Positions 7,894 through 55,732 of a stretch of 64,000 bases of DNA are shown here, piece after piece (positions within the stretch are counted from its first letter, which is position 1; every line of letters begins with the position of its first letter). Position numbers and translations under genes: made by a program. The notes under the pieces are model-generated. The model worked only from the letters and a program-made list of their open reading frames with translations, searched no databases and was not told where the DNA came from. Origin of the DNA: an uncultured Candidatus Saccharibacteria bacterium (lineage in GTDB: Bacteria; Patescibacteriota; Minisyncoccia; Phycocordibacterales; CAIZLB01); assembly GCA_964550955.1 (NCBI GenBank), contig CAZKAF010000001.1, positions 174,728-238,727 on the forward strand. Direction: 5' to 3'.

Positions 7894-8017
7894 AAATGTA
7901 TGTGTCTATCTTATAGCATTATTCTCGCAGATATGGAGGGCCGCGGTGTATTGACTTGATTGCTTATTTGGTGTGATATTTTTTTATCTTTTGTTCATTC
8001 TGTAGTACTATATCGGC

Positions 8018-14435: not shown

Positions 14436-15493
14436 AAAAACTCAGAAACAGATTTCTAAAATTCGCGTCAAATGACATCGGCATCGATCTCGGCACTGCC
14501 AACACGCTCGTGTACGTGTCCGGAAAGGGCGTGGTCATAAACGAGCCTTCGGTAGTTGCCGTGAACCAGAAGACGGGACGGGTCGTGGCTGTCGGCGCGC
14601 AAGCCAAAGCGATGCTTGGCAGGACGCCGGGACATATCATCGCGGTTCGGCCGCTCGTTGACGGCGTTATTTCGGATTTTGAGATAACGGAGGAAATGCT
14701 TTCGTATCTGATCAAGAAAGCCGAAGGTCTTTCGAAGAAAATGCTCGGTCCGAAAGTTGTCATCGGCGTTCCGTACGGCGTCACGAACGTCGAGCGGCGA
14801 GCGGTTCGCGACGCGGCTAAAAACGCCGGCGCCAGGGAAGTGCATATCGTGGAAGAGCCCATGTCGGCAGCCATCGGCATCAGGCTTCCGGTTCGAGAAG
14901 CGACGGGCAGCATGATCATCGACGTCGGAGGAGGGACGACCGACATTGCGGTCATCTCGCTTGGGGGCATCGTGCGGGCCAAGAATCTCAAGGTCGCGGG
15001 CGACAAGCTCAATGCCGACATCATGTCGTATATCCGGAACGAGTTCAAGATTCTCATCGGCGAGAAGACTGCCGAAGACGTGAAAGTGGCCATCGCCAGC
15101 GTGCTTCCGTGCAACCCTTCGCTCGAGACGACTATCCGAGGACGAGACTTGGTCACGGGCCTTCCGCGAGAGGTGATCATCACCGATTCGGACATTCGCG
15201 AGGCCATAGGAGCGTCCATCGACACGCTTCTTGACTCGGTCAAGGAAGTTCTTGAAACCACTCCGCCTGAAATCCTCGCCGACGTCATGCGAAACGGGAT
15301 ACACCTTACAGGCGGCGGAGCGCTGATCAGAAGCCTTCCCGAAGTGCTTTCCGAGTACGTCGGCATTCCGGTATATGTTGCGGAAGATCCGCTCACAGCG
15401 GTCGCCCGAGGCGCCGGAATCATCCTCGAAGAGATAGATTATTTCGAAGACATGCTAATCCAAAACGAAAATGAGCTACCTGCTACGCGATAA
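14429..15493 (+). CDS. mreB: rod shape-determining protein MreB (paralog 2, head of mreBCD-pbp2 operon)
   Basis: IGIDLGTANTLVYV and DVGGGTTDIAV. It overlaps the proS stop and is followed by mreC. Confidence 0.9.
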   Translation: MLKKLRNRFLKFASNDIGIDLGTANTLVYVSGKGVVINEPSVVAVNQKTGRVVAVGAQAKAMLGRTPGHIIAVRPLVDGVISDFEITEEMLSYLIKKAEGLSKKMLGPKVVIGVPYGVTNVERRAVRDAAKNAGAREVHIVEEPMSAAIGIRLPVREATGSMIIDVGGGTTDIAVISLGGIVRAKNLKVAGDKLNADIMSYIRNEFKILIGEKTAEDVKVAIASVLPCNPSLETTIRGRDLVTGLPREVIITDSDIREAIGASIDTLLDSVKEVLETTPPEILADVMRNGIHLTGGGALIRSLPEVLSEYVGIPVYVAEDPLTAVARGAGIILEEIDYFEDMLIQNENELPATR

Positions 15494-16199
15494 GAAAAAA
15501 TCATCCTCGAAGCTTGTCCTGAAGATTGTCGGGGCGGCTATTATCATTTTGGCCCTGACCGCAGTTTTCAGCGGTCCGCTTGACGCGGGGATAAGCAGCC
15601 TGCAGCGTTCGGTCGGATACGCGTTCGGATACTATAATGAGCCCGTAAGGCCCATTTCTGAAAATTCGCTCATAGAATCCTTGAGATCGGAAAATGAAGA
15701 ATTAAAGCTGCTGCTTGGGCGGAAAATCGACGCGGATCAGAAAATATTTTCCGTGGTGCTCATGAGGCCTCCCAAGACCCCATATGATTCGCTGGTCATC
15801 GACATCGGCGAGAATCAGGGGCTTCTTCCGGGCGACCTGGTATACGGCGGAATGGATTATCTGATCGGGCAAATCGAGGAAGTCGCGCCCGCCACGTCGG
15901 TGGTGAAGCTGTTCTCGACTCCGGGCGAGCGGATTGACGCGTTTCTCGGCACCGGATCCTCGACGTCCGCCGTGGTCGTCGAGGGACGCGGCGGAGGAAA
16001 TTTCTATATCAAGATTCCGAGGAACATCGTCGTGAACGAGGGCGATCCCATCGTCGTTCCCGGAATAAACTCGTACGTGCTCGGCACCGCTGAAAATATT
16101 GATTCAGGCGAAGGGGAGGCGTACGCGCACGTGTACTTCAAGCTTCCGGTCAAGCTAAATTCATTACAGTATGTTCAAGTCAAAAAGGCTATTCGCTAA
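15471..16199 (+). CDS. mreC: rod shape-determining protein MreC
   Basis: N-terminal TM, a coiled coil (ENEELKLLLG), and a beta-rich C-terminus. Its position after mreB supports the call. Confidence 0.8.
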   Translation: MSYLLRDKKKSSSKLVLKIVGAAIIILALTAVFSGPLDAGISSLQRSVGYAFGYYNEPVRPISENSLIESLRSENEELKLLLGRKIDADQKIFSVVLMRPPKTPYDSLVIDIGENQGLLPGDLVYGGMDYLIGQIEEVAPATSVVKLFSTPGERIDAFLGTGSSTSAVVVEGRGGGNFYIKIPRNIVVNEGDPIVVPGINSYVLGTAENIDSGEGEAYAHVYFKLPVKLNSLQYVQVKKAIR

Positions 16200-16561: not shown

Positions 16562-18340
16562 ATGATTTTAAGAAAATCCCGAAAAATAAAGAGAAATCAT
16601 GAAATAGCTCCGGATGAAATTTTCCTCGATTCGTCGAACTTGCCCAAATTCGACCGGGACCAATTCGAAGGGCAGATAGAGCGGCCCATTTCATACGGCT
16701 CGCTCATGTTCACTGCGGGCTTCTTCGCGCTCGTGGCCCTCGTCTTCCTGTTCAGGATAGGATCCCTGCAGGTGGCCGAAGGCGCGAAGTACAAGGACAT
16801 ATCCGAAAATAACCGCCTTCACCGCAGCCTCATCTTCGCGGAGCGCGGCGCCCTGACCGACAGGGAGGGCAAGCTGCTTGCCTGGAATACTATCGATCAG
16901 AACCAGAATGAGTTCTCGCTGAGAGCATATTCCGCCGAACCGGGACTGCACGGCTTCCTGGGCTATATCAAGTATCCGAGAAAGGACAAGTTCGGATTTT
17001 ATTACAATACCAAGTACGAAGGAGCTGACGGAGTCGAAAAATATTTTGATTCGATTCTGTCCGGCCAGAACGGCCTGAAGATCACGGAAACGAGCGCGAC
17101 CGGCGAATTGCTGTCCCAGAGCACGGTTCGTCCCGCTCTCAAGGGCGAAAACGTCGAGCTCTCGATTCACGAGGGCATACAGAAAGCCCTGTACGGATCC
17201 ATAGAGGAGATGACCCGGCGCTCGGGCTTCGAAGGCGGCGCGGGAATCATGATGGACATCGAGACGGGCGAAGTCATCTCGAGCGTCTCATATCCCGAAT
17301 ACGATTCGAACGTCATGACGGACGGCAGCGATTCTGCGGCCATCAAGGGATATCTTACCGACAGCAAGAAGCCTTTCCTGAACAGGGTTTCCAGCGGGCT
17401 GTACACTCCCGGCTCGATACTCAAGCCGATGTTCGGCCTGGCGGCGATCGCCGAGGGAGTCATCAGCCCTGACAAGAAGATAGAAAGCACCGGCGAGCTG
17501 AGGGTCCCGAATCCGTACCAGCCCGGCGAATTCACGGTCTTCAAGGACTGGAAAGCTCACGGCTTTACGGACGTGAGGCAGGCCATCGCGGTGTCGTCCG
17601 ACGTTTACTTTTATCAGGTCGGAGGCGGGTTTCCGGGACAGAAAGGCCTCGGCATCCTGCGAATGGACGAGTACGCGAAGATGTTCGGCCTCGGCGATTC
17701 GCTTGAGGGCACGTTCTTCAGCGGAAGGAAAGGAGTCATCCCGACTCCCGAATGGAAGAAGGAAAATTTCAAGGGGGACATCTGGAGGGTAGGAGACACG
17801 TATAACACGGTCATCGGCCAGTACGGATTCCAGATAACTCCCGTGCAGGCGGTTCGAAATATCGCGGCGATGGCGAATGATGGAAAATTGATAACGCCAA
17901 CGATCCTTTCCAAGGCTTCGGAACGCGATTTGGCAGACAAGGGATTATACAGCTCCGGAGTTCCGAAAGCCGTGACCGTGGAAAATGTGGGCGGGGTGTC
18001 GCCTGAAAGCGGAAAGAAGCCGGACGCCGCGGCCTTGAGCCGGTATTATCAGATCATAAGGGAGGGCATGCGCATGACGGTGACGGAAGGGACGATGCAG
18101 GCCTTGAACGTCCCGTACGTGAAAGTGGCGGGGAAGTCGGGAACGGCGCAGCTCGGCGTCTCGAAGAAGTTCATCAACTCCTGGGCAGTCGGATTCTTCC
18201 CGTATGACAAGCCGAAATACGCCTTTGCCGTGCTTCTCGAAAGGGGTCCCCATACCTCGACTGTCGGCGCCACGGCTGCCGTGGCGGCATGGCTGGACTG
18301 GATGAACCTGTATGCTCCGGACTACCTTAAGAACGAGTAG
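16562..18340 (+). CDS. mrdA: penicillin-binding protein 2 (elongasome transpeptidase)
   Basis: N-terminal TM plus a dimerisation domain, and transpeptidase motifs SILKP (SxxK), SSD (SxD/N) and KSGT. Confidence 0.85.
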   Translation: MILRKSRKIKRNHEIAPDEIFLDSSNLPKFDRDQFEGQIERPISYGSLMFTAGFFALVALVFLFRIGSLQVAEGAKYKDISENNRLHRSLIFAERGALTDREGKLLAWNTIDQNQNEFSLRAYSAEPGLHGFLGYIKYPRKDKFGFYYNTKYEGADGVEKYFDSILSGQNGLKITETSATGELLSQSTVRPALKGENVELSIHEGIQKALYGSIEEMTRRSGFEGGAGIMMDIETGEVISSVSYPEYDSNVMTDGSDSAAIKGYLTDSKKPFLNRVSSGLYTPGSILKPMFGLAAIAEGVISPDKKIESTGELRVPNPYQPGEFTVFKDWKAHGFTDVRQAIAVSSDVYFYQVGGGFPGQKGLGILRMDEYAKMFGLGDSLEGTFFSGRKGVIPTPEWKKENFKGDIWRVGDTYNTVIGQYGFQITPVQAVRNIAAMANDGKLITPTILSKASERDLADKGLYSSGVPKAVTVENVGGVSPESGKKPDAAALSRYYQIIREGMRMTVTEGTMQALNVPYVKVAGKSGTAQLGVSKKFINSWAVGFFPYDKPKYAFAVLLERGPHTSTVGATAAVAAWLDWMNLYAPDYLKNE

Positions 18341-18869: not shown

Positions 18870-18960
18870 GGTTCCGGCAGTTTTTTCGGCAAATCGAGTA
18901 TTGGTGTATAATTGCTAGGCAATATTAGCAATATTCTTGGGTAATACTTCAGCAATAATC

Positions 18961-20988
18961 ATGGCATCACAAGAGGAAATAAAAGAGGTGCGCCTCGAAA
19001 AGCTAAAAAAGCTCGAGTCGCTCGGCATCGAAGCGTATCCTGTTTCTGTCCGCAAGGATTATGACATGGAAAGCTTGAGGGAGAAGTTCGACTCCCTTGC
19101 GCAGGAGCAGGGCAGCGAAGGGCAGCAAGACGGGCGAAAACAGGAGATTGCCGTTGTCGGCAGGATCATGTCCATGCGTGGCCAGGGCGCCCTGATTTTC
19201 TCCGATCTTTTTGACGGCACGGGCACGTTTCAGATAATTCTCAAGAAGGACCAGGCTCCCGCGTATATTCGAAGTTCCCAAAAAGGGGAATCCGTTTCGG
19301 GCATCGAGGAGACCGTCCCTCATCCTCAAGTCGATGACGCGTTCGAGCTGTTCAAGGAAACGGCTGACATCGGGGACTTTGTCGAAGCGAGGGGAAGCCT
19401 CATGAGAACCGCGAGAGGGGAAATGAGCCTCCTTGTTTCGTCCTGGAGAATTATCGCGAAATCGCTTCGGCCCCTTCCGGAAAAATGGCACGGCCTTCAG
19501 GACGTCGAGGAGCGATACAGGAAAAGATATCTCGACGTGCTCACCAATCAGCCTGTCCGGGATTCGTTTGTCCTCCGAACCAGGCTGCTTTCAGCGGTAC
19601 GCGAATTTTACGATTCCCATGGATATCTCGAGGTCGAGCTTCCCATTCTCCAGGCGCTCGCCGGCGGCGCCACGGCCGCAGTTTTCAATACGCATCACAA
19701 CGCCCTCGGCCTCGATTTCAACCTTACCATCGCTCAGGAGCTATACTTGAAAAAGCTCATAGTCGGAGGGTTCAACAAGGTCTATGAAGTGGGTAGGAGG
19801 TTCAGGAACGAGGGGATCGACACGACTCATAATCCTGAATTTACCATGCTCGAATCCCAGGAAGCATATGCCGATGCCAAGTCGCAGCGGCAGTTCATAC
19901 AGGACCTCATGCAGTCTCTGGTGCGAAAGCTGTTCGGCAAGGACTCTTTCGAATACGAGGGGCAGGTCATAGACACCTCGAAGCCTTTCGAGGTCCGGGA
20001 ATACCTGGACGTCATTGCGGAATCGGCGGGCATAGCTGACGTTCGGTCCAAGTCCCGCGACGAGCTCGTGGCCGTGGCTCATGGATTCGGAGCTGAGATA
20101 GAGCCTTCGGACGAATTTGAGAAGATTATAGACAAGATTTACAAAAAAGCAGTCCGGCCGAAGCTCATCCAGCCGATTTTTCTCATAAACTATCCCGTAG
20201 AATTCAATCCTTTCGCCAAAAGAAGGGAAGACGACAGGACGCTTATCGACCGGTTCCAGCTCGTGGCAGGCGGGCTTGAAGTGACGAATTGCTTCTCCGA
20301 ATTGAACAATCCAGTCGATCAGAAAGAGCGGTACGAAGAGCAGGACCGAAAGAAGAGGCAGGGCGACGGGGAGATTTCCCCGAGCGATCAGGATTACCTG
20401 GAAGCCATGGAATACGGCATGCCCCCGAACGGCGGCATCGGCATCGGCATCGACCGCCTCGCCATGCTTTTCATGAATTCCGGCAATATCAAGGATGCCA
20501 TCCTGTTTCCTACGATGAAGCCGGAAAATCCGGCAGGTGGCAGCGGAGCAGGTTCTCAAAGGAAAAAGGAGGGCGAAGTGGCGGTCATCGTCTTGAATGA
20601 ATCCGCGAATCTGCTCGGGTGGCAAAAAATGAACACGGTCGCGCATCTGAGCGCCTCATTTGCCGGATCGGCCGGAAGGAAGCTCTTCATGCAGGAGAAG
20701 ATTCAGACTGCCGACGCCAAGGACATAAAGCTCAATATTCAGCACGCCATCATGATAAAGGAGCTTGGCACGAGCGCAGCGCTGAAAGAGGTCAGGGAAC
20801 GGGCCGAAGCGGCCGATCTTTCCATTGCGGAATTTACCAGAGAGATGATCGAGACTACGAACGACAAGAAAGTCATCGCCCAGACAAAGGAAAAAGACTT
20901 TGATGAAATAGAGTATCTCGGCATATTGGTATTCGGTCCAAAAAGCGCCGTCGAGAAAATCACGGAAGGCGCCGTTCTGGCCGGATAA
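18961..20988 (+). CDS. lysS: lysyl-tRNA synthetase (class II) with ~150-aa C-terminal extension of unknown function
   Basis: OB-fold N-terminus, motif 2 FRNEGIDTTHNPEFTMLE, and motif 3 GGIGIGIDRLAML. The ATG at 18961 (MASQEE…) is preferred; the ORF-track start at 18937 is a TTG. The core ends at about 20530, and the extension starts EVAVIVLNESANLLGWQKMNTVAHL. Confidence 0.85.
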   Translation: MASQEEIKEVRLEKLKKLESLGIEAYPVSVRKDYDMESLREKFDSLAQEQGSEGQQDGRKQEIAVVGRIMSMRGQGALIFSDLFDGTGTFQIILKKDQAPAYIRSSQKGESVSGIEETVPHPQVDDAFELFKETADIGDFVEARGSLMRTARGEMSLLVSSWRIIAKSLRPLPEKWHGLQDVEERYRKRYLDVLTNQPVRDSFVLRTRLLSAVREFYDSHGYLEVELPILQALAGGATAAVFNTHHNALGLDFNLTIAQELYLKKLIVGGFNKVYEVGRRFRNEGIDTTHNPEFTMLESQEAYADAKSQRQFIQDLMQSLVRKLFGKDSFEYEGQVIDTSKPFEVREYLDVIAESAGIADVRSKSRDELVAVAHGFGAEIEPSDEFEKIIDKIYKKAVRPKLIQPIFLINYPVEFNPFAKRREDDRTLIDRFQLVAGGLEVTNCFSELNNPVDQKERYEEQDRKKRQGDGEISPSDQDYLEAMEYGMPPNGGIGIGIDRLAMLFMNSGNIKDAILFPTMKPENPAGGSGAGSQRKKEGEVAVIVLNESANLLGWQKMNTVAHLSASFAGSAGRKLFMQEKIQTADAKDIKLNIQHAIMIKELGTSAALKEVRERAEAADLSIAEFTREMIETTNDKKVIAQTKEKDFDEIEYLGILVFGPKSAVEKITEGAVLAG

Positions 20989-26198: not shown

Positions 26199-26270
26199 GG
26201 CCCTATCGTCTAACGGTTAGGACGAAGCCTTCTCAAGGCTTAAATCGGAGTTCGATTCTCCGTAGGGTCA
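26199..26270 (+). tRNA. tRNA-Glu (anticodon CTC)
   Basis: Hand-folded cloverleaf. Acceptor GGCCCTA/TAGGGTC; D-stem GTCT/GGAC; anticodon stem AAGCC/GGCTT with loop TTCTCAA; T-arm CGGAG-TTCGATT-CTCCG; discriminator A. CCA is not encoded. Confidence 0.8.
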
Positions 26271-26365
26271 CAAATAGCAAGAAAGATAAAAGTGGAGATT
26301 GGCAATGAGAAAGTACACGTAAAATCTGTCGTTGAATTTTATCCGAAAATAGATATAGTTATATA

Positions 26366-27466
26366 ATGAATTTACGTACGCGTGCCATCTATCTCTTGAT
26401 TATTGAAGTAGGATTAGTTCTCGTTCTGGTTGGTATATATCCACTAATGAGCAAAGAGATATTTGATAGTGGCGGCGACCCTCTTTTTGGCTTCGGCATT
26501 CTCATGTGTCTGGCTTTAGGGATTGCGTGGTGTATGATTGATTTGTATAAAATCTCAAAAGGTACTGCAAAACCGTTTGCACGTGTTAATAATGGACAAA
26601 CAGAATTTACTGTCATCAAGTTAATCAAAAGGCAACCAACCTTTGTTCTGTCTGTATTATTTACAATTATTTTTCCGCTACTCTTTCTGACTATAATAGC
26701 TGTGGGTTTTTCGACAGGATGGACGCTTATATTTTTAGAAGATTTTGATAGAATAACAGAGGTCTACGTTGGTTGGACTGCTGTTTTCCTGCCTTTCTTC
26801 GGTGTAGCTTTTGTGATTTTTTTCTTACAAACAGTCGGGTTCTTGATCACAGGAGAGAGTTTACAACAACATCTTACTGAAGGTCATGATAATTTCTTTT
26901 TGCATATAATAAAGGGTGTGATTATTGCACTGCCATACGTGGTTCTTTACAGCTTCGTGTTCATAATAATGATGTTCTTGCATGGAAAGAATTCAAAAGA
27001 GAGAACGGCGGGTTTAAGAACAACAATCGGAAGCCTGTCGATCTTCTTTGGCTTACAAGCCTTAAAATACTTCATATACGCAAATCTATCCTCGATAGCA
27101 TTTGAAGACAAATACTCATACACCACGCTCAAAGACTCTGCACAATACATGAAAGGTAATGCGGCCAGTTTGCCTTCAGTGTTTACTAACTCAGCGTGGC
27201 TGTCTATGGTGGCTTTTCTCTACCTGCTTGTCCTAATAGTTTGGGCTAGCAAAACTTCTTTTTTAAGTGAGGGTGAGATAGTCATGTTTTCTCTTGCTTT
27301 TACTGCCGTTATTGTTGCATGGATGACATTTGTGGAACAAGTCCTCTTTCTTCTTAACTACGTTCGAGTACAACACCCGGAGTGTGACATGTCTAGCTTG
27401 CTTGAAGACAAGTCATCCAATCAGGACTCACAGATTTTAATGAGCGAAGTGAGCATGAAATCGTGA
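26366..27466 (+). CDS. hypothetical polytopic membrane protein (AT-rich island gene 1)
   Basis: 366 aa with 8 or more hydrophobic helices. AT-rich codon usage unlike the flanking genes. Confidence 0.55.
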   Translation: MNLRTRAIYLLIIEVGLVLVLVGIYPLMSKEIFDSGGDPLFGFGILMCLALGIAWCMIDLYKISKGTAKPFARVNNGQTEFTVIKLIKRQPTFVLSVLFTIIFPLLFLTIIAVGFSTGWTLIFLEDFDRITEVYVGWTAVFLPFFGVAFVIFFLQTVGFLITGESLQQHLTEGHDNFFLHIIKGVIIALPYVVLYSFVFIIMMFLHGKNSKERTAGLRTTIGSLSIFFGLQALKYFIYANLSSIAFEDKYSYTTLKDSAQYMKGNAASLPSVFTNSAWLSMVAFLYLLVLIVWASKTSFLSEGEIVMFSLAFTAVIVAWMTFVEQVLFLLNYVRVQHPECDMSSLLEDKSSNQDSQILMSEVSMKS

Positions 27467-27565
27467 TGTCGCGACACTCAGGATTTGCGAAGCAAAGACG
27501 CTTGTGTCGGCGACGCACACCTTCAACGGCTAGCACGAGCGGCGTCAGGACAACAGTTCAGAAAG

Positions 27566-27603
27566 TTTGCATGGCTACGCAATTTGAGGAAAAGCGATAT
27601 AAT
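27566..27603 (+). promoter_or_regulatory. 38-nt repeated promoter-like element, copy A (…TTTGAGGAAAAGCGATATAATT)
   Basis: A near-identical copy lies at 28750-28787. It ends in TATAAT 8 nt before the Nudix ATG. Confidence 0.5.
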
Positions 27604-27611
27604 TAAAGTAT

Positions 27612-28118
27612 ATGGAACCAGTTCTAAAATTAAATCCGGATAATATTACGGATGAAGCTGCCGCCAGGTTAAGGACCAGATTTGCTGCCAGAGGCGTCGT
27701 CTTTGACGAAAACAAAAACGTAGCGCTTCTCCCGGTCACTGCTCACCACTATTACAAGCTTCCAGGCGGCGGAATCGAAGAAGGCGAAGATAGGGTTGAA
27801 GCTTTTCGCAGGGAATGCTTGGAAGAAATCGGTTCAGACGTGGAAGTGGTGCAAGAGTTAGGGTCGGTGGTCGAGTACAGGGCAGAATTTTCTCTTGCTC
27901 AGACTTCGTATTGCTTTGTGGGCAAAGCAATAGGGGAAAGGACAAAAGCGACTTTTACCCAGCATGAATTGGACAATGGCTTTCAAGAAGCATTGTGGGT
28001 TCCTTTAGATAAGGCCATTGAACTCATGGAAAGTCAGGCGGACAATTATGAGGGCAAATTTATTGTAGAGAGGGACACATTTCTTTTAAAAAAGGTGAGA
28101 TCGTCGGGAATCCTCTAA
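27612..28118 (+). CDS. Nudix hydrolase
   Basis: Nudix box LPGGGIEEGEDRVEAFRRECLEEIGS (Gx5Ex7REUxEExGU). Confidence 0.8.
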   Translation: MEPVLKLNPDNITDEAAARLRTRFAARGVVFDENKNVALLPVTAHHYYKLPGGGIEEGEDRVEAFRRECLEEIGSDVEVVQELGSVVEYRAEFSLAQTSYCFVGKAIGERTKATFTQHELDNGFQEALWVPLDKAIELMESQADNYEGKFIVERDTFLLKKVRSSGIL

Positions 28119-28160
28119 AGTACCGGGCAGGATTATCCGACCCATGCTACAATTTATCTC

Positions 28161-28703
28161 ATGAAAAAACTGATTGCGCTTCTCATATTCTTAATAATCG
28201 CTCTTGTTGCTTATAATACGCGAGATAATTTTTGGGCTAAAGATCAGGACGAGCGCGTGCAGGCGACCGATGCCATGAATTATGTGTTCCTTTCGGGCAA
28301 AAAAGGCAGTCCGATACTTCCGATAAAAACAGCCTATACTTCAAAGGCGGACATGAGCATCATTTCGTCTACTTACATAGAGCAAACCAATCTTGATCTC
28401 AGCAAGATTGAAACCGGAGATGAGGTGTCGATAGTGTCATGGGATGGAAGGGCAATTGAGGGCAGAGTTGATTTATTCGAGAGCGGAAACATGATGACGG
28501 GCGGACGTCTGGAAGAATTTAAAAGAGTGGCTGGACAGCTGAAAGAGGGAGGGGCATATTCGTTAACATTGGATAAGGACTTTAAAGTAACCGCCGGGAC
28601 TATCTTCGGATTCACCGGAAAATACTTTTTTACTATCAAGAAAGATTCTGATGGCAAGTTGGTGATGGATGAAAGGCCGCGAGAGGCGGTGGTGTCTGAA
28701 TAG
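28161..28703 (+). CDS. hypothetical secreted/membrane-anchored protein
   Basis: 180 aa with an N-terminal hydrophobic anchor (LIALLIFLIIALVAY). No motif. Confidence 0.5.
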   Translation: MKKLIALLIFLIIALVAYNTRDNFWAKDQDERVQATDAMNYVFLSGKKGSPILPIKTAYTSKADMSIISSTYIEQTNLDLSKIETGDEVSIVSWDGRAIEGRVDLFESGNMMTGGRLEEFKRVAGQLKEGGAYSLTLDKDFKVTAGTIFGFTGKYFFTIKKDSDGKLVMDERPREAVVSE

Positions 28704-28749
28704 GTAGAAATTATCCGCTCGGGCAGCATCAGGGCAATAATCCAGCGAT

Positions 28750-28787
28750 TTTGCATGGCTACGCAATTTGAGGAAAAGAGATATAAT
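28750..28787 (+). promoter_or_regulatory. 38-nt repeated promoter-like element, copy B
   Basis: One mismatch to copy A. TATAAT lies 7 nt before the ATG at 28795. Confidence 0.5.
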
Positions 28788-28794
28788 TCAAGGC

Positions 28795-29823
28795 ATGGAA
28801 AAACAATCCCGCATACGCTTCCTCAATCAGCCCAAGCCTCTTGCTGAACGCGCTTCAGGGTACGAGAAGGATGAATATGAACGAAAGATGGCCCTCATTC
28901 CTTGCGTGGAACACTTTCTTTCATCTAATGACAGCTTTAAAGGCAAGGACGTTTCCGTTACCTTTCCCCATACGGGGGTATCTTCGCTTGTATGCATATT
29001 GGAAGCTGACGGTGAAAAAACCGTACTCAAAATCCCCGTTAGCATCAACCTTCCCGAAGGCGAATCCGATTGCCTGAAAAGCTGGGAGCTGGTCGGCGTC
29101 AGCGTGCCGCATGTTATCCAAGAGGGGATGATCGAAGGCCGACCGTACATTCTCATGTCCCATATTGATGCCGTGCGCTTGATGGATGTTCCTGCCGAGA
29201 AAGCGGACAAGGAAATATACATGAAGCTCGGCAGGACGCTTCGCCAAATGCATCAGTCCAAAGCTTGCGGTTACGGGCGCATTAAAAATCACAAAGCCGA
29301 GCATGTTCAATTCAGGGATTGGCTTAATAGTGAATATGAACAAAGGATGATCAATCACGTGCGCGCTCGAAATATCATAGATGACGAGAAGCACGGATCC
29401 TTGTCGAAGGCTTTGGAAATATTAACCATGTACGTCGAATCGAATCCGCAGAGCGCGTACTGCCATCATGATTTCAGTACGGGCAGCACATTCGCCACCG
29501 ATCCGATTGCCGTCTTTGATCCCAACCCTTTGATCAATCATCCGATCATTGATATTGCCCGCAGCGTTGTCTTGATTGCCGGAAGCGGACCGAATGAAAA
29601 TGTCAGGCAATTCATTGATCAAATGATGGAAGGATACTTTGGCGAAGAAGCGCACGACAAGCAGGCTTTCCAGGCGGCCATACTATTGAATGCGCATTCA
29701 AAAATCTTTAACTGGCGTAATTCCGGACGAACTCAAAATATTGAGAACATGCTCGCGTATTTATCTGAAACTAAGCATTTGTTGTCCTGGCAAGGACCGA
29801 TGAAAGGCAGGGTTATCGAATGA
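28795..29823 (+). CDS. phosphotransferase-family kinase (APH / choline-kinase-like fold)
   Basis: CHHDFSTGSTF (HxD catalytic loop), a downstream DPNP (DFG-like) motif, and DIA. The ATG at 28795 is preferred; the ORF-track start at 28768 is a TTG inside the repeat. Confidence 0.7.
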   Translation: MEKQSRIRFLNQPKPLAERASGYEKDEYERKMALIPCVEHFLSSNDSFKGKDVSVTFPHTGVSSLVCILEADGEKTVLKIPVSINLPEGESDCLKSWELVGVSVPHVIQEGMIEGRPYILMSHIDAVRLMDVPAEKADKEIYMKLGRTLRQMHQSKACGYGRIKNHKAEHVQFRDWLNSEYEQRMINHVRARNIIDDEKHGSLSKALEILTMYVESNPQSAYCHHDFSTGSTFATDPIAVFDPNPLINHPIIDIARSVVLIAGSGPNENVRQFIDQMMEGYFGEEAHDKQAFQAAILLNAHSKIFNWRNSGRTQNIENMLAYLSETKHLLSWQGPMKGRVIE

Positions 29824-32441: not shown

Positions 32442-33230
32442 ATGAAAAAATTCATCATCTTCCTCGTATTCGTAATAGTCCTCTCAATCATCGTCCTCCC
32501 TTTGATCCTGGTCGGCCTCGGAAGACTTAAGAATCCCGTTGATCAGTTCGCGCAGAACTCCGCGCCCGGCCGCGTTCAAGGAGGCGGCGGGGCTCAAACC
32601 ATAAACTACATACCTCAGTCAGGCACGTTTGCCGGACCAAGCAGCGCATCGCTTCAAAGGCAGGAAACATTAAAGCAGGTGGCCGCCTGCTTTTCCGGCA
32701 GTACTCATGAGGTTGAGGCGCGTTATGCGGTAACCGAGAATGAGGAGAAGAAAAATTTGCTCAAAATATCAGGCGCGGCGGAATGGACTTTGAATGGATA
32801 CGAGCTTAAGCAGGTTCCGATGACGGGCTCGCTCGGCTCGCAGGGATTCACGCTCGATGTTTTCCAAATGAACCCGGCATGCGAACTTTCCGATGCGCAG
32901 CTGCTTGCCGAGCTTCATGATAGCGGAGAGTTCAGCAGGCTTGTCGATACGGACGGATTCACGCTCACCAATCAGGGCGCGTCAAGAATTAGCGGCCTTG
33001 AATATCGGTGGAAGCTGTATGAATTGAACACCCAGCTCGACCTTAGAAGCGCGAAGAAGGATAATTCTTTCAGCGCGATTTATCATGCATTTTATGGCAA
33101 GAGGCTGATTTCGTTCCAGTTTCATGGGACGACCAAGGTGTTTGCCAATGAGCGCGATTTTCTCAGGCAGACGCAGGCTTGGCTTACCGGGGTAAGGTAC
33201 CTGCCCATGGTTCCAGAAGCCAGGATTTAG
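32442..33230 (+). CDS. hypothetical secreted protein
   Basis: 262 aa with an N-terminal signal/anchor. No motif. Confidence 0.5.
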   Translation: MKKFIIFLVFVIVLSIIVLPLILVGLGRLKNPVDQFAQNSAPGRVQGGGGAQTINYIPQSGTFAGPSSASLQRQETLKQVAACFSGSTHEVEARYAVTENEEKKNLLKISGAAEWTLNGYELKQVPMTGSLGSQGFTLDVFQMNPACELSDAQLLAELHDSGEFSRLVDTDGFTLTNQGASRISGLEYRWKLYELNTQLDLRSAKKDNSFSAIYHAFYGKRLISFQFHGTTKVFANERDFLRQTQAWLTGVRYLPMVPEARI

Positions 33231-33657: not shown

Positions 33658-33817
33658 TCTCGCATCATAAAGAAATAAAATCTCCTCTTTGAAACAGGCC
33701 GCCCCGATCGGGCGGTTTTTTTCTTGCTCGACACCCCTGAATTTCCTGCAAATGGCCTAAGATATGTGGAAAACAAAAGCGAAAAGCGCCATTTTTCATA
33801 TATAATTAAGCATAGCA

Positions 33818-36800
33818 ATGAAAGCCTTTTTCTCGTATCCGGTAAGAAACTTCGCGGCTCTCTGTCTGACGCTCGGTCTCATTCTCGCCCCCAACGCATC
33901 TCTTCTTGCTCAGGTAGGCGACAGCAGTCTCACGTTCCTTCAGCGCCTCAGATGCGCATTCAACCCCGTGCTTCTGGTGGTTCCTTTGCCCGGCTATTGT
34001 TACCGGGTTGATATTGCGGATGACACTTCGGCTGCCGCTTCGACGTCGGAGTCGGAAACGTCGGCTCTTGCAAGCATCCTGCAACCAAGGGGCATGGCGG
34101 CGCCTGCGGCTCATGTTCCCTCCAGCGCGGAAATTCCTGCTGCGACGACGCGAGCTGAAGGCATTTCCTCTTCAGGGCAGCGGCCTGTATACGTCACGAA
34201 TACTCTGTATCGAACCGATCCGGACGCGGTAACTCGCCAGCAATTGGAGCAAAGGCTCCAGCTGTTCAAGAATACGCTTCCCGTGACGGTTACGGCTACA
34301 GGCTATTCAGCCCCGACTTACGCTTCTTATTCATGGACCAATCCGCCGCCAAACATGGCATCCGCGGAGTATGTCAATTCAAGGGTGTCCGAGAGTTTCT
34401 CTTCCCTGGCGCTTCGCATCGATGACATTGAGCAGAATCAGCAGGGCACATCCAGCCCTTCGCAGTGGGCTGACGGAATCGCGGGCATTTCATATACGGG
34501 AGGGAATGTCGGAATCGGCACTACCACCCCTCCGTTCACCCTGACCGTAGCAATGCCGAGCGGGGAGCAGGCGTTCTTTGTCACTTCGAGCGGAGCTGCG
34601 GGAAATAGCACCGCAAATCCTCTTGATGCTACCGGCGTCGGCCTTACGCCGAGGAGGTTTTCATGGGAGGTTCCTGGGGCGGGATCTGGCTGGGGTGCAC
34701 GTTTCTCGAATGCCGGCACAGGAAATTTTAAGAACGTTCTCTTCCTTTCTGCCGCATCAACTTCTACATTCAGTTATATCCTGAGTGCTGAAAGCGGCGG
34801 CGTCAGCAGGTTCATCGTGAAGGCAAACGGCAGAGTCGGCATCAATACGGCCGCCCCGTCGAGCATGCTCGATATCAGGGCGATGAATGGGGATACTGAC
34901 CTTTTTTCTGTCACATCTTTTAATAATAATCCGTCTCTCGTTGTAAGGAATACCGGCTTGGTCGGAATCGGAACCGGCAATCCAGACGCAAGGCTTCATG
35001 TTTTGTCTGCAGCCACGAACGCTGCCACGCTTGTTGCCCAGGCCACTACTTCCCAGGCAGCATCCGTCCTTGATGTTCGGGATTCCACGGGAATCTCACT
35101 TCTCAACGTGCTGCCGGGAGGTAATGTCGGCATGGGCACCGCTTCGCCGAACCATCTCTTGGAGGTTTCCCATGCGGGCACGGCCGACTTCCTGGGCGTA
35201 GGGGCTTTCTTTGCGCCGAACAACACTACGGCCGGATACGCGACGCAGCTTAAGTTTGGCGTGAGCAATACGATGGGCAACAGCGCGGAATGGCGATACG
35301 TTCATCAGGGAAGCGACAACAACGCAAACCGGATTGACTTTGGATTCAACGGATACGCATCTCCTGTGCTTTCGTATAACAAGGCCGGCAATGTAGGTAT
35401 CGGCACCACAACACCAGCACAAAAACTTTCAGTCGCTGGCGGTATGCGACTCACTGGAGCGTTCTTCGACGGTGCAAATACGAGCGGCACAGCGGGCATG
35501 GTTTTGCAAACTACAGGCACTGGCACGCAATGGGTGGCCACTTCGTCATTGGGCATCTCCGGCGGCGAGTCGTCGCAATGGACAACCTCCGGATCTGACA
35601 TTTATTATGATGCAGGAAAGGTGGCGGTAGGGACGACTACGGCCTGGGATGACTTTACCGTCAGCTTGAATGGCGGAAAGAGAATGTCCATGGGTGCCGA
35701 CTCGAACAATTATCTCGCATGGGGGTTCACGAGCGGCGGCTACAGTTCAGTTCCAAGTTATGCCAATGCGGGCGGTACTGGCAATAGGACATCGCTCATT
35801 ACGGTATCCGGAACACTTACTCTTGCGGTTGGAGCACCTTCACGATTGGTAAACGGAGATATTTCGGCAAACGCTGCTTATTTTACAAACAATGAATCTG
35901 TGGCAGGCAAGTATCTTGTGTTCGACTTCGGCGTGGATGCGTCGAAAGTTATCACTGAAGCAAGATTTTACCAGAACCCTGCCATTTCTCAAGGAACGTT
36001 CAATTGGCAAGGGTCGAATGACGGCAACACCTGGACAGATATTGGCTCAAGCTTTGTTCTTGGTGGAAATACGGTGCAAACCATTACGACTCTTTCGGAA
36101 AATACTACAGGCTATCGATATTATCGAATCCTTGGATTGTCCGGGACGACGAATTGGAATTCCTACATACATCAGTTTGAGTTTCAGATTGATGATTTTC
36201 AAACAGCAACCTATGCCTCTGGGCAAACATATTCAATTGATGGTGTTTCGGCTGCCGGTACTGTTGCGCTTCAGTCGTCTGGCGGCAGCGTGGGAATTGG
36301 TACCGTGTCCGCATTGTCCAAGCTCGATGTTAACGGAAATGTATCCATCGGATCATATGCTGGAACAATAGCGGCGCCAGTAAACGGCTTGATTGTGAGC
36401 GGCAACGTGGGTATTGGCACTACGACTCCTGCCAGCAAGCTTTCGGTTGCCGGAAGCGCATTTATCGGCGGCGATTTGGTCGCAACAGGCAGCATCACCT
36501 TCGGCAATTTTAATATGAATGCTGTGGCAACGTGCGGTCAGCAATACCATACCTTTATCGGCTCCATCGGAGACGTCGGCGGCGATCAGTGCGCGGCCCT
36601 GAACGTGACTCAGCAGGATACGAACGGAAATGTTATTTACCGCTTCGGCGGAGTCGGCCAAGCATGGGCTGGTGAATTTTATGCCAACAGCTCTCTGGTT
36701 GGAATGAACACTAAGGGTGGCATCCCCCTCAGCTTTCAGATCGGCCAGACTGAGGCGATGAGGGTTGCGACAAACGGCAACGTGGGCATAGGAACGACGA

Positions 36801-38194
36801 CTCCAGCCTACAAGCTTGATGTCAACGGCGACATCGGCCGTTCCGGCGGCGACTTGGTGATGTACGCCGGCGTGAAAGACAATTCAAGCCTTTGGTTTAG
36901 AACTGGAACGAGCGCGAACTATACGGACGAATTTGTCATAAATGGAGCTGCAAATACCATTTCCCTTGGCGGCAATGATTTGCTGCTTTCTTCAGGAAGG
37001 ATAGGCATTGGCACCACCACGCCAGCGAGCAAACTCCACGTCTTCTCTGGCGAGGCTGGTCCGGTTGTCGCGACCACTACGGCAAGCCTGGTACTCGAGA
37101 GCGCTTCGAGCAATTTCCTTCAGTTCATGAATCCTGGAGCCGCCGCCTCCGGTGTGTTCTTCGGCCACGGCAATAGCGGCGGCACGTACCGCGACGGCGC
37201 AATCCTCTATAACTACGTCGGCCCCTCGAACAGCTTGGCCTTTTACGCGGACGGCGTCGATCCGCGCATGATTATCACGGGCACGGGCAACGTGGGAATC
37301 GGCACCACGACTCCTACCGAAAAGCTCGATGTGGTTGGAGGCATACGAGCATCGAGTCCTTCAGGGAACATCGGCGTATCCGTGCATTATTCCGGGTCTG
37401 GAGGAAGGGAATATCAGTTCTTGTCATGTTCGAATTGCGGCACTGCCAGCCTCGGCGGCCTTGAGGTGTATGACCGCAATGCCAGTGCGGGACGCGCATA
37501 TATCGCGGCGGGAGTGAACGGCTGGCAGACGCCATCCGACCGACGCCTCAAGAAAGATATCGAGACGCTGAGCGTTCTCGACAGGCTTGGCGAAGTTCGG
37601 GGCGCAACGTATGTCTTGCGCGATTCGGACATCAAGCAAATCGGCGTCATCGCTCAGGAAATCAGGGACGCGTTCCCTGAAGCGGTGTCAGGAGAGGAAA
37701 TAGAAGGGCGCTTCCTCGGAGTTTCATATGATGCCATCGCGACTATTGCGCTTCAGGGCGTCAAGGAAATCGCCGATCTTTCAAGCGCCTTCAAGAATCG
37801 TCTGATCGGTTGGTTTGCTGACGCCTCAAACGGAATTGGCAAATTGTTTGTCGGCGAAGTTCGTACCGAAAAGCTATGCGTAGGCGATACGTGCGTCACT
37901 GAAGCCCAGCTCCAGGCGCTCCTTCTCAATGCGAGCCTTTCTCAGGCTCAAGCGTCAGGAGGATCAAGCGCGCCAGCTGCTGAATCAGGCGCTCAAAATG
38001 ACAAGAACGACGCGGGCAAGGAAAAGCCGAAAGATGCGGCCGACAATGCGCCGGCAGCCGGCGGGAAGCCGGATGATTCAGCGCCCGCTGACAAAATTAA
38101 AGATGCCGCCGTCATTTCTCCGCCGGCTGATCCCGTGATTTCAGAAGCCGGGCTCTCGTTGCCGACGACGCCCGAAGCTCCAGTTGAAAATTAG
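33818..38194 (+). CDS. giant secreted fibre/adhesin-like protein (1458 aa) with tail-fibre-type repeats, discoidin-like segment and C-proximal intramolecular-chaperone (peptidase S74-like) domain
   Basis: Signal peptide MKAFFS…LLAQ. At least 10 copies of G(N)VGIGTTTPxxKLxV. Segment KYLVFDFG…FNWQGSNDGNTWTDI…YRYYRILG resembles F5/8 type C. PSDRRLKKDIETLS…GVIAQEIRDAFPEAV…VSYDAIATIALQGVKEI matches the tail-fibre/endosialidase chaperone domain. An Ala/Pro/Asp/Lys-rich tail follows. Confidence 0.8.
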   Translation: MKAFFSYPVRNFAALCLTLGLILAPNASLLAQVGDSSLTFLQRLRCAFNPVLLVVPLPGYCYRVDIADDTSAAASTSESETSALASILQPRGMAAPAAHVPSSAEIPAATTRAEGISSSGQRPVYVTNTLYRTDPDAVTRQQLEQRLQLFKNTLPVTVTATGYSAPTYASYSWTNPPPNMASAEYVNSRVSESFSSLALRIDDIEQNQQGTSSPSQWADGIAGISYTGGNVGIGTTTPPFTLTVAMPSGEQAFFVTSSGAAGNSTANPLDATGVGLTPRRFSWEVPGAGSGWGARFSNAGTGNFKNVLFLSAASTSTFSYILSAESGGVSRFIVKANGRVGINTAAPSSMLDIRAMNGDTDLFSVTSFNNNPSLVVRNTGLVGIGTGNPDARLHVLSAATNAATLVAQATTSQAASVLDVRDSTGISLLNVLPGGNVGMGTASPNHLLEVSHAGTADFLGVGAFFAPNNTTAGYATQLKFGVSNTMGNSAEWRYVHQGSDNNANRIDFGFNGYASPVLSYNKAGNVGIGTTTPAQKLSVAGGMRLTGAFFDGANTSGTAGMVLQTTGTGTQWVATSSLGISGGESSQWTTSGSDIYYDAGKVAVGTTTAWDDFTVSLNGGKRMSMGADSNNYLAWGFTSGGYSSVPSYANAGGTGNRTSLITVSGTLTLAVGAPSRLVNGDISANAAYFTNNESVAGKYLVFDFGVDASKVITEARFYQNPAISQGTFNWQGSNDGNTWTDIGSSFVLGGNTVQTITTLSENTTGYRYYRILGLSGTTNWNSYIHQFEFQIDDFQTATYASGQTYSIDGVSAAGTVALQSSGGSVGIGTVSALSKLDVNGNVSIGSYAGTIAAPVNGLIVSGNVGIGTTTPASKLSVAGSAFIGGDLVATGSITFGNFNMNAVATCGQQYHTFIGSIGDVGGDQCAALNVTQQDTNGNVIYRFGGVGQAWAGEFYANSSLVGMNTKGGIPLSFQIGQTEAMRVATNGNVGIGTTTPAYKLDVNGDIGRSGGDLVMYAGVKDNSSLWFRTGTSANYTDEFVINGAANTISLGGNDLLLSSGRIGIGTTTPASKLHVFSGEAGPVVATTTASLVLESASSNFLQFMNPGAAASGVFFGHGNSGGTYRDGAILYNYVGPSNSLAFYADGVDPRMIITGTGNVGIGTTTPTEKLDVVGGIRASSPSGNIGVSVHYSGSGGREYQFLSCSNCGTASLGGLEVYDRNASAGRAYIAAGVNGWQTPSDRRLKKDIETLSVLDRLGEVRGATYVLRDSDIKQIGVIAQEIRDAFPEAVSGEEIEGRFLGVSYDAIATIALQGVKEIADLSSAFKNRLIGWFADASNGIGKLFVGEVRTEKLCVGDTCVTEAQLQALLLNASLSQAQASGGSSAPAAESGAQNDKNDAGKEKPKDAADNAPAAGGKPDDSAPADKIKDAAVISPPADPVISEAGLSLPTTPEAPVEN

Positions 38195-54565: not shown

Positions 54566-55732
54566 TCAGGAAGAGCCCTTCTTCTGATATTTTGAAACGT
54601 TCAGGATGATGCCGACCGAAGCCAGCGCGAAGAAAAGGGCCGTCCCTCCGTGAGATATGAAAAGCAGCGGCGTGCCGGCCAGCGGAATGATGGCGAGCAT
54701 GGCGGCAATGTTGAGGAATGACTGGATGATGATGAGCGACACGATGCCGATGACCAGGAACGTCCCGAACAGGTCCGGCGAGCGGAGCGCGATCTTGAAT
54801 CCCCTGAAGGCGAATACGACATAGAGCAGGATGATTGAGACCGATCCGACGAATCCGAACTCCTCGCTCGCGACCGCGAATATCGAGTCCCCGATCGGTT
54901 CCGGCAGGAAATTGAATTTCTGGATGCTCTGGCCGAAGCCTCTTCCGAACATTCCGCCCGATCCTATGGCGATGAGCGATTGCTGAATCTGGTATCCGCT
55001 TCCCGTCGGGTCCCTCGAAGGGTCGACGAATGTCATTACTCGCTGCTTCAGGTACGGCCTTTGCGATACGAGCAATGCCAGGGCCAAGGCTCCGACAAGC
55101 CCCATCAGGAACATGTCCCTCCAGCTTCCTCCGGCCGTGAGGAAGATGCAAAGTCCCGCAAGCGCGATGACCATGAAGGTGTCCGTGTCCGGCTGGGTGA
55201 GAACGATCGCGCCCGTGACGGCGACGAGTATGAGAAACGGCACCGTGCCGAGCCTGAACGTGGAGGCCTTGCCCTTTACCGACGCGAGCCATGCGGACAA
55301 GTACATGACGAAGGCTATCTTGTATATTTCGGCAGGCTGAAATGTCGTGAATCCGATGTCTATCCAGCGGCACGCGCCCTTCGCGCAAAACTGCACTCCC
55401 GGTATGAATACGCCGAGCATGATGATTACCGACGCGATGAAGATGGCGAACGCGTATTTTCTCCAGAACGTGTAATTGATCCGGGACGTTATGAAGCAGG
55501 CTACGCTTCCTCCTATCAGCCCGAAGACGACTTGGCTGAACGCTGCCGCCTCGAATCGCGCCGCTCCCCTTGTCAGGAGCCCGAGCGAGGCGGAAATGAA
55601 TATGAAAAAGCCTGCCACGACCAGGATGACCGACGTGGCGAGAAATATTTTGTCTGATTTTTTTGCTTTCAATGGTGCCATTTTGTTTTGAATGCTTCCT
55701 GCTGCATGATTCCCCGCCCCATGGCGGTTCAT
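54566..55732 (-). CDS. ftsW: SEDS-family peptidoglycan glycosyltransferase, FtsW by position
   Basis: 388 aa with about 10 TM helices. It sits between mraY and murG. Confidence 0.8.
   Translation of the reverse strand: MNRHGAGNHAAGSIQNKMAPLKAKKSDKIFLATSVILVVAGFFIFISASLGLLTRGAARFEAAAFSQVVFGLIGGSVACFITSRINYTFWRKYAFAIFIASVIIMLGVFIPGVQFCAKGACRWIDIGFTTFQPAEIYKIAFVMYLSAWLASVKGKASTFRLGTVPFLILVAVTGAIVLTQPDTDTFMVIALAGLCIFLTAGGSWRDMFLMGLVGALALALLVSQRPYLKQRVMTFVDPSRDPTGSGYQIQQSLIAIGSGGMFGRGFGQSIQKFNFLPEPIGDSIFAVASEEFGFVGSVSIILLYVVFAFRGFKIALRSPDLFGTFLVIGIVSLIIIQSFLNIAAMLAIIPLAGTPLLFISHGGTALFFALASVGIILNVSKYQKKGSS

Follow-up and report, generated by a model that had tools for sequence, protein, structure and literature searches.

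The MATs (mosaic adhesive trimers) of Bdellovibrio bacteriovorus are surface-exposed trimeric adhesins equipped with a signal peptide (Caulton et al. 2024, PMC10769870). The 21 MATs share an invariant, beta-rich N-terminal domain of about 130 aa that follows the signal peptide, and they combine mosaic tips with a beta-helical shaft bearing capping loops; a Peptidase_S74 (S74) domain terminates 13 of the 21, and its self-cleavage, shown for Bd3182, is abolished by the S782A substitution (PMC10769870). A published table of 13 selected MAT-like proteins from elsewhere (Omnitrophica, Micavibrio and others) contains no member of the candidate phyla radiation (CPR) (PMC10769870). Here we describe a gene for a related fibre protein (hereafter, the window fibre) located in a 64-kb stretch of DNA (the window, that is, the whole stretch analyzed) from a member of the Patescibacteria (CPR). 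On balance, we consider it fairly probable that the product is an exported, homotrimeric, phage-tail-fibre-like surface fibre that works in the manner of the S74-subgroup MAT adhesins. By analogy with the MATs, it would be the CPR version of an S74-terminated cellular fibre adhesin that most likely grips the cells on which the bacterium lives. This interpretation is built on the observed domain composition, catalytic motif, folds of two domains, syntenic cellular context, rapid divergence, and restricted distribution of one module.

Like the S74 subgroup of MATs (for example, Bd3182; 8OJN, 8ONB and 8ONC), which belong to a bacterium that attaches to other cells, the window fibre is encoded on the chromosome outside of a prophage. 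Further shared features are a length of about 1000 aa or more, recurring capping-loop motifs of the GNVGIGTTxPxxKL type, direct sequence matches in the shaft, a C-terminal S74 domain with the SDxxxK motif, and mosaic exchange of binding modules; the signal-like N-terminus may correspond to the MAT signal peptide. Unlike in the MATs, the N-terminal presentation domain is of an unrelated sequence, a Cys-hairpin/helix module and an acidic tail are added after S74, and the glycan-binding-type domain is inserted in the middle of the shaft rather than placed at the tip; moreover, the MATs have been studied experimentally, and the window fibre comes from a CPR bacterium. Thus, the window fibre is homologous to the MATs in the shaft and the chaperone, and we treat it, by analogy, as probably working like them, but in the strict sense it falls outside the Bdellovibrio MAT family, whose defining presentation domain it does not share in sequence.

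Among phage proteins, the L-shaped tail fibre pb1 of T5 (4UW8) and the K1F endosialidase (3GW6) share with the window fibre the S74 domain and its Ser-Lys motif, and phage tail fibres in general share shaft motifs and PHROG tail-fibre families. In contrast to the window fibre, phage fibres lack a signal peptide, are encoded in tail modules, end about 80-115 aa past the catalytic Ser, and lack the module that follows S74. The intramolecular chaperone autoprocessing (ICA) domain of MyRF (7DC3) is the best structural match to the modelled S74 domain and represents cellular, non-viral self-cleavage coupled to trimerization. MyRF differs, however, in being a eukaryotic membrane-tethered transcription factor in which cleavage releases the N-terminal part, a trimer, for nuclear import, and has no fibre shaft of the type found here. 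Finally, the beta-sandwich fold of aa 647-791 is shared with CBM32/discoidin modules and with a virion protein of Roseobacter phage RD-1410Ws-07; unlike a typical CBM32, which is appended to a glycoside hydrolase, this domain sits within the fibre shaft.

How the ultrasmall Patescibacteria recognize and hold their hosts is largely unexplained, although type IV pili have been implicated. All cultivated Patescibacteria are described as obligate episymbionts (PMC12206443). Paceibacteria attach to methanogens via structures that are still uncharacterized; the study in question reports, among others, secreted proteins with galactose-binding folds and asks that the attachment site be studied structurally (PMC10936435). 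In a 2024 perspective on Patescibacteria, the only structures mentioned are type IV pili and predicted adhesins that are not further specified, and in the openly searchable literature we found nothing linking Patescibacteria, CPR, Parcubacteria or Saccharibacteria with S74, an endosialidase-type chaperone, or tail-fibre-like proteins. Cellular fibre adhesins with S74 are an established concept, so the advance presented here is an incremental one; what appears to be previously undescribed is their setting in a CPR bacterium, together with the lineage-specific N-terminal end and the module downstream of S74. The locus extends the MAT concept to another phylum with a different cell envelope and offers a testable candidate, a fibre resembling phage receptor-binding proteins in which the site of self-cleavage can be predicted, a domain is predicted to bind glycans, and the middle evolves fast and swaps modules while the chromosomal position is conserved.

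Domain architecture of the fibre protein and its relatives

The fibre gene is a complete open reading frame (ORF; 33818..38194, + strand) with an ATG start codon, encoding a protein of 1458 aa (150 kDa, pI 4.9). An identical protein (P0001) is present in NCBI and in Logan; the Logan copy read here is on a 21-kb contig, and the longest contig on record for the protein measures 696,200 bp. The protein scan against NCBIfam yielded no family match. The protein is divided into the following regions:

33818..33913, +: aa 1-32, predicted Sec-type signal peptide or signal anchor, with K2/R10 in the n-region and the h-region FAALCLTLGLILAP
33914..34498, +: aa 33-227, lineage-specific N-terminal region, made up of a loop between Cys46 and Cys61, about 65 aa of Ala/Ser/Thr/Pro-rich linker, and about 100 aa of conserved sequence
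34499..35755, +: aa 228-646, shaft part 1, motifs 1-6, with a phrog_18345 tail fibre match at aa 330-616
35756..36190, +: aa 647-791, inserted CBM32 / F5-8 type C (galactose-binding-like) beta-sandwich, assigned from profile, homologues and fold
36191..37534, +: aa 792-1239, shaft part 2 and mature tip, motifs 7-11, Cys pairs 906/925 and 1204/1207
37535..37807, +: aa 1240-1330, Peptidase_S74 intramolecular chaperone/autoprotease, assigned from Pfam, motif and model
37808..37951, +: aa 1331-1378, post-S74 module, with WFADAxNGI..., LCVGDTCV and the helix TEAQLQALLL
37952..38191, +: aa 1379-1458, acidic, Ala/Pro/Lys/Asp-rich low-complexity tail, predicted to be disordered

Pfam assigns aa 1240-1290 to PF13884 (Peptidase_S74) with a score of 48.1 bits (E=1.4e-12), the cut-off being 22. 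The signature S1240-D-R-R-L-K1245 (SDxxxK), in which the S, D and K are invariant in an alignment of 22 sequences, begins at nt 37535. In the AlphaFold model of aa 1145-1379, the per-residue confidence (pLDDT) exceeds 90 across the domain, and the best PDB matches in a Foldseek search are the MyRF ICA domain (7DC3; E=1.1e-4, TM 0.60, 25% identity) and the K1F chaperone (3GW6). Ser1240 and Lys1245 are the predicted catalytic dyad, with the predicted cut located immediately before Ser1240.

The shaft contains 11 copies of the GNVGIGTTTPxxKL motif, at aa 228, 338, 382, 434, 524, 600, 822, 862, 987, 1060 and 1157; ten of these are found with the regular expression G-x-[NRKS]-[VI]-[GA]-[IVM]-[GN]-T, and the eleventh is the LVGIGT copy at aa 382. 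In the fibre frame, the core [VI]G[IVM][GN]T is present 11 times, but the remaining six-frame translation of the window contains it only once, so that the copies cannot be attributed to chance. The DNA identity between the copies is only 63-81%, which indicates that the motif is conserved at the protein level and was not recently duplicated. When the fibre was compared to PDB sequences using phmmer, four distinct sequences were matched, three of which are MAT fibres of B. bacteriovorus: Bd2439 (8OL4, E=1.3e-5), Bd2133 (8OND, E=5.9e-4), and Bd3182 (8OJN, E=6.1e-3). These alignments are centred on ...EAMRIxxxGNVGIGTTTPxxKLxVxG units, which are beta-helix segments in the MAT structures; the fourth sequence, the CBM32 5ZU6, is matched weakly (E=0.055) by the inserted domain and not by the shaft. 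Three PHROG families annotated as tail fiber protein were matched as well, namely, phrog_9942 (1.2e-23, in shaft part 2 and the tip), phrog_18345 (2.3e-18), and phrog_5668 (4.2e-17). These matches show homology of parts rather than a virion role.

The inserted domain was identified primarily through its fold and homologues. The PF00754 (F5_F8_type_C) match at aa 673-782 scored 18.3 bits, below the Pfam cut-off of 28.2, but a search with aa 640-800 alone retrieved 35 proteins with 39-58% identity, several of which carry PF00754 or PF22633; with few exceptions, these are small proteins (160-280 aa) that stand alone. The AlphaFold model of the domain (pLDDT 95.1, pTM 0.89) produced 114 PDB matches at E<=1e-3 in a Foldseek search, with the CBM32 structures 2W1U, 2V72 and 5ZU6 at the top and CBM62 and factor VIII C2 also represented (E about 6e-6, TM about 0.6). 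Among the viral models in BFVD, the best match was the Roseobacter phage virion protein (E=1.6e-14, TM 0.85, 32% identity), the matches there including phage and viral F5/8-C proteins, and the unannotated phrog_10667 matches the domain with E=1e-10. None of the other fibre homologues retrieved, the orthologue P0003 described below among them, has this domain. The domain looks as if it was drawn from the pool of phage structural-protein modules, and we propose, from the modelled fold, that it contains a glycan-binding site. For two of the stand-alone relatives, the gene is part of a phage-like run of genes. Genes of this type were located at 8001-8603 of locus L162, 6444-7046 of L163, and 8001-8495 of L164; one stands next to a gene for a 1263-aa protein, and another shares a VirSorter contig with genes for a P22-type portal and an SU10-type adaptor.

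Several of these features had been anticipated in an earlier note prepared from the window sequence. The coordinates and length it gave for the ORF were reproduced exactly; the repeats of the type G(N)VGIGTTTPxxKL(x)V, of which it counted at least ten, number 11; and the chaperone domain it placed near the C-terminus, at nt 37530-37800, scores above the Pfam cut-off, with SDRRLK starting inside that range. The discoidin-like segment that it reported holds at the level of the fold, through the model and the homologues, but not as a profile hit.

The 37 S74-bearing homologues fall into two groups. The larger one (26 of the 37) comprises proteins without an N-terminal hydrophobic segment that end about 80-115 aa past the catalytic Ser, with the exception of P0002, which has a 251-aa acidic tail. 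The remaining 11 possess a signal-like N-terminus, and seven of these, including the window fibre, carry the post-S74 module. P0021, which has no signal peptide, is encoded in a myovirus tail module, between the genes for Laminin_G_3 proteins and those for the phage sheath and T4-type baseplate. Proteins of isolated phages show about 30% identity over the S74 region and cover at most 32% of the query region. Some of the relatives are automatically named 'tail fiber domain-containing protein' in NCBI.

The post-S74 module has the consensus W-F-A-D-A-x-N-G-I...L-C-V-G-D-T-C-V-T-E-x-Q-L-x-A-L-L, followed by a long acidic or Thr/Pro-rich tail; comparable Thr/Pro/Glu/Asp-rich tails are found in the homologues with a signal-like N-terminus. 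In the AlphaFold model (pLDDT about 85), the module is a hairpin bracketed by two cysteines (predicted Cys1354-Cys1359 disulfide) and followed by a helix, and it lies on the fragment that the predicted S74 cleavage would release. Because the loci were found with patterns taken from this fibre family, the counts are not an unbiased census: the module profile matched 21 of the 80 genome loci and none of the 80 IMG/VR viral S74 loci, even though the Cys-hairpin peptide was one of the two search patterns in both the genome and the viral scans. The 21 comprise 19 loci from named Patescibacteria (Kaiserbacteria, Nomurabacteria, Saccharibacteria, Paceibacterota and Patescibacteria) and two from metagenome-assembled genomes (MAGs) without a taxonomic name. 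Among the fetched loci, the module was not found in S74 genes of Bacteroidota, Bdellovibrionota, Planctomycetota, or other phyla. The module lies 60-185 aa past an S74 start in 21 of 23 copies, most of them at 89-118 aa. Thus, in the loci examined, the module occurs in MAGs named as Patescibacteria, plus the two unnamed ones, and never on viral contigs.

Other CPR fibre genes with S74 likewise occupy cellular contexts, beside rpsL-rpsG-fusA or near the genes for TyrRS and radical-SAM proteins. In MAGs named as Nomurabacteria and Saccharibacteria, S74 fibre genes lie immediately upstream of rpsL-rpsG-fusA (L007 8837-12006, L008 3873-12504, and L009), whereas the window fibre gene is immediately downstream of rplU; L008 and L009 contain two S74-plus-module copies each, which are tandem genes in L008. 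The adjacency to ribosomal-protein operons may only reflect the gene density of tiny genomes. On the 822-kb Patescibacteria contig that encodes the homologue P0033, an S74 fibre of 2537 aa, an ORF of more than 4061 aa (L166 1-5582) is located 2.4 kb upstream of the fibre gene, suggesting a cluster of very large surface proteins.

Genomic context and divergence of the fibre gene

The fibre gene is embedded in a cellular chromosome. Of the larger ORFs across the window, 41, including the fibre gene, were scanned against Pfam; 33 matched families, all of them housekeeping or general cellular, and eight matched none. The products include Fmt, Def, PriA, two MreB, MreC, PBP2, GreA, RRF, RmuC, L21, RecR, DnaB, several aminoacyl-tRNA synthetases (CysS among them), MurG, FtsW, and MraY; the sole RNA gene is one for tRNA-Glu. 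No phage family was detected among these 41 ORFs.

A scan of one genome per GTDB species identified the same gene order, YqeY-RmuC-hyp-L21-[fibre]-RecR-DnaB-hyp-CysS, in a Candidatus Paceibacterota MAG (isolate SMAG_U3656, locus L019); none of the species representatives matched at 100%. The products encoded upstream of the fibre gene are 89% (YqeY), 86% (RmuC), 55% (hypothetical protein), and 75% (L21) identical between the two genomes, and those encoded downstream 76% (RecR), 90% (DnaB), 67% (hypothetical protein), and 64% (CysS). With the named housekeeping proteins 64-90% identical to those of a Paceibacterota MAG, the source organism is a Paceibacterota-related member of the Patescibacteria (CPR). 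Given the 64 kb of housekeeping genes and the gene order shared with this MAG, the fibre gene is chromosomal, a vertically retained positional orthologue rather than a prophage gene.

The claims of the earlier note that no other phage genes are nearby and that the gene is cellular agree with the absence of phage families among the scanned ORFs and with the positional orthologue flanked by an identical gene order. All those parts of the interpretation in the note that are open to computation hold up. Its further suggestion, a cellular fibre or adhesin that borrowed the phage fibre-folding module and would be plausible for an episymbiotic lifestyle, is favored by the cellular context, the signal-like N-terminus, and the MAT relatives of the shaft; the direction of transfer implied by 'borrowed' is presumed.

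The phage affinities of the protein could nonetheless be read as those of a prophage remnant or a phage gene, that is, a tail fibre left behind by a phage or used by it in trans. The PHROG tail-fibre matches, with E-values down to 1e-23, the closest relatives of the CBM32-like insert, which are found in phage structural modules, and the GC content at third codon positions (GC3) of 0.57, at the low end among the window genes, all point in that direction. We consider this explanation highly improbable: the 4.4-kb ORF is intact and occupies the same chromosomal position in a second species, with no phage gene among the ORFs scanned across the 64 kb; a signal-like N-terminus is incompatible with cytoplasmic virion assembly and is absent from the checked homologues on phage contigs; the post-S74 module occurs in none of the 80 viral S74 loci; and the resemblance to isolated phages is limited to the low identity over part of the queried region noted above. 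Recent horizontal acquisition of the fibre gene is not supported by its composition, given the GC content of 0.547, similar to that of the neighbours.

In another scenario that invokes phages, the fibre would be an anti-phage decoy or receptor mask, such that displayed or shed fibre-like molecules shield the receptors used by the phages of the bacterium itself. Apart from the scarcity of CRISPR systems in CPR genomes (PMC6509639), what speaks for a decoy is only the resemblance to phage receptor-binding proteins combined with fast evolution. There is no defence-gene neighbourhood in the scanned window, and the closest characterized cellular relatives are adhesins aimed at other cells (PMC10769870); we find the decoy scenario hardly credible. 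Phage-fibre-like decoys have, to our knowledge, no precedent.

In contrast to the neighbouring genes, the fibre gene is strongly diverged between the two genomes. The orthologue, P0003, consists of 1013 aa, 445 aa fewer than the window fibre, and aligns with it at the two ends only: the identity is 40% by BLASTP (aa 21-395) or 52% by phmmer (aa 21-230) in the N-terminal part and 28% by BLASTP in the C-terminal part (aa 1057-1443). The middle spans about 660 aa in the window fibre but about 250 aa in P0003. Judging from this sequence comparison, the fibre gene evolves much faster than its neighbours and exchanges modules. A diversity-generating retroelement or cassette in the window was considered and rejected: no part of the gene has another DNA copy elsewhere in the 64 kb, the intragenic repeats are only 63-81% identical, and no reverse transcriptase turned up among the Pfam-scanned ORFs.

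The mode of divergence bears on the possibility that the fibre is a structural envelope appendage without a partner-specific role, such as an S-layer-associated spike, a spacer, or a device for attachment to abiotic surfaces or polysaccharides. CBM32-type modules bind many environmental polysaccharides (alginate, chitosan, galactans), which would suit such a role. Yet an identity of about 40%, against 55-90% for the neighbours, the 445-aa length difference, and the presence of the CBM in one orthologue only amount to fast modular divergence, which is typical of an arms race or ligand tracking and atypical of a generic structural element. A purely structural role thus appears unlikely.

Just upstream of rplU, the gene at 32442-33230 encodes a hypothetical protein of 262 aa that starts with a transmembrane or signal segment. 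Its counterpart in the Paceibacterota MAG is syntenic and 55% identical, compared to 75-90% for its neighbours; by sequence, it is a second fast-evolving exported protein beside the fibre gene.

Proposed export, processing and function

The most hydrophobic 15-aa window of the entire protein in a hydropathy scan is aa 12-26, preceded by K2/R10. This segment aligns with the N-terminus of P0003, ...LILAPYLAAAQA followed by T, in which the residues before the T are AQA. For the signal peptide proposed previously, the hydropathy maximum and the alignment give heuristic support only. Outside the signal segment, all eight cysteines form close pairs (46/61, 906/925, 1204/1207, and 1354/1359), as fits an extracytoplasmic protein. 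In an exhaustive phmmer search of 1.84 billion representative proteins with aa 1-230, the matches were the query itself (P0001), P0003, and one more sequence (P0122), which was dropped as a spurious, low-complexity tandem-repeat ORF; no Bdellovibrio protein was among them. No sequence similarity was found between the N-terminus of the fibre and those of two S74 fibres of Bacteriovoracia. We propose that aa 33-227 would form the cell-proximal presentation or anchor end.

Because the fibre shows no known anchor motif, the most serious rival to the adhesin interpretation is a fibre or lectin that is secreted and released instead of staying attached to the cell. Under this scenario, the trimer would diffuse away after both processing events and serve in agglutination, as a matrix component, or in coating or blocking of receptors. 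The precursor is predicted to undergo processing at both ends, and freeing the N-terminal trimer is exactly what ICA cleavage accomplishes in MyRF, which is the best structural match. However, aa 1-230 is the part of the protein best conserved between the orthologues (52%), as would fit a conserved contact with the envelope of the producer; an argument of this kind, from interaction with the envelope, has likewise been made for the N-terminal domain of the MATs (PMC10769870). Moreover, MAT fibres, built on the same overall logic, stay on the surface (PMC10769870). Altogether, we regard release as rather unlikely.

Under the preferred interpretation, a surface-displayed adhesin, the N-terminal signal segment would direct the chain through Sec. 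Outside the membrane, by homology with MATs, T5 and K1F, the S74 chaperone would align three chains and nucleate an interdigitated beta-helical shaft, in which the GNVGIGTTTPxxKL motifs would be the recurring capping loops. The Ser1240/Lys1245 dyad, recognizable from its motif, would then cut each chain just before Ser1240. A 219-aa, 22.7-kDa fragment would come off, carrying the chaperone together with the Cys-hairpin module and the acidic tail, and about 124 kDa of each chain would remain in the mature fibre. Retention at the cell envelope would fall to the lineage-specific N-terminal region (Cys loop plus Ala/Ser/Thr/Pro linker), and the mid-shaft CBM32-like domains and the newly exposed tip would bind glycans on the partner or host cell. 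CPR cells are not known to have an outer membrane. More speculatively, the CPR-restricted post-S74 module might assist assembly outside a cell in which no outer membrane or periplasm confines the chains.

Several points weigh against this interpretation. Export, trimerization, cleavage, host binding and surface display are all deduced from sequences and models, and the export signal was judged by hydropathy and alignment only. Neither an LPXTG motif, nor a lipobox, an SLH domain, or a second transmembrane segment was detected in the fibre by Pfam, hydropathy and inspection, and lacking a recognized wall or membrane anchor, the fibre could simply be released after both cleavages. In the monomer AlphaFold model, the shaft is poorly predicted, with a pLDDT of about 50; this is expected for an interdigitated trimer modelled as a monomer, but it means that the assignment of the beta-helix comes from sequence homology alone. 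Finally, the genome spans at least 696 kb, of which the window represents 64 kb, and a prophage located elsewhere could still use the fibre in trans.

Tentatively, a broader picture can be drawn, which we put forward as possible but doubtful: secreted S74 fibres marked by the Patescibacteria-restricted post-chaperone module (disulfide hairpin, helix and acidic tail) might constitute a phylum-wide host-recognition apparatus of the CPR, recruited from the module pool of phage receptor-binding proteins, assembled extracellularly with the aid of this module, and diversifying rapidly at fixed chromosomal loci. If so, the fibre sequences would be the main determinant, and predictor, of the host to which a CPR cell attaches.

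Possible transcription signals and other features of the window

Two sequence elements precede the fibre gene:

33696..33718, +: intrinsic-terminator-like hairpin after rplU, with a 9-bp stem including 6 GC pairs and a T-run; consensus match only
33801..33806, +: TATAAT hexamer, 11 nt 5' of the ATG, read directly from the sequence

The hairpin probably acts as a terminator that separates the fibre gene from the upstream L21 gene. On the downstream side, recR converges on the fibre gene, so that, with the terminator-like hairpin after rplU, the fibre gene looks monocistronic. The TATAAT hexamer was not called in the promoter scan, a good -35 element being lacking, and no Shine-Dalgarno sequence is present between it and the ATG. 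The hexamer is a possible promoter of the fibre gene's own, in which case the leader would be very short or absent.

Directly 3' of the tRNA-Glu(CTC) gene (26199-26271), a low-GC islet extends over 26199-29823, with a GC content of 0.39-0.47 and GC3 of 0.40-0.54, compared to GC3 mostly of 0.55-0.78 in the other window genes. Its products are two hypothetical proteins (366 and 180 aa), a NUDIX hydrolase, and an APH-like kinase. The islet has the look of a small insertion at a tRNA gene, acquired by horizontal transfer.

The window also contains five rod-shape genes (8018-9031, 14429-15493, 15471-16199, 16562-18340, and 54566-55732), for two MreB paralogues, MreC, a PBP2-type transpeptidase, and an FtsW/RodA-family protein. 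Together, they make up a complete machinery for rod shape and elongation in a CPR bacterium whose longest contig on record is about 0.7 Mb. The gene at 18937-20988 encodes a class II aminoacyl-tRNA synthetase (tRNA-synt_2, Lys/Asp/Asn type) with a DUF2000 domain fused to its C-terminus, and a second tRNA-synt_2 enzyme is encoded at 59638-61092.

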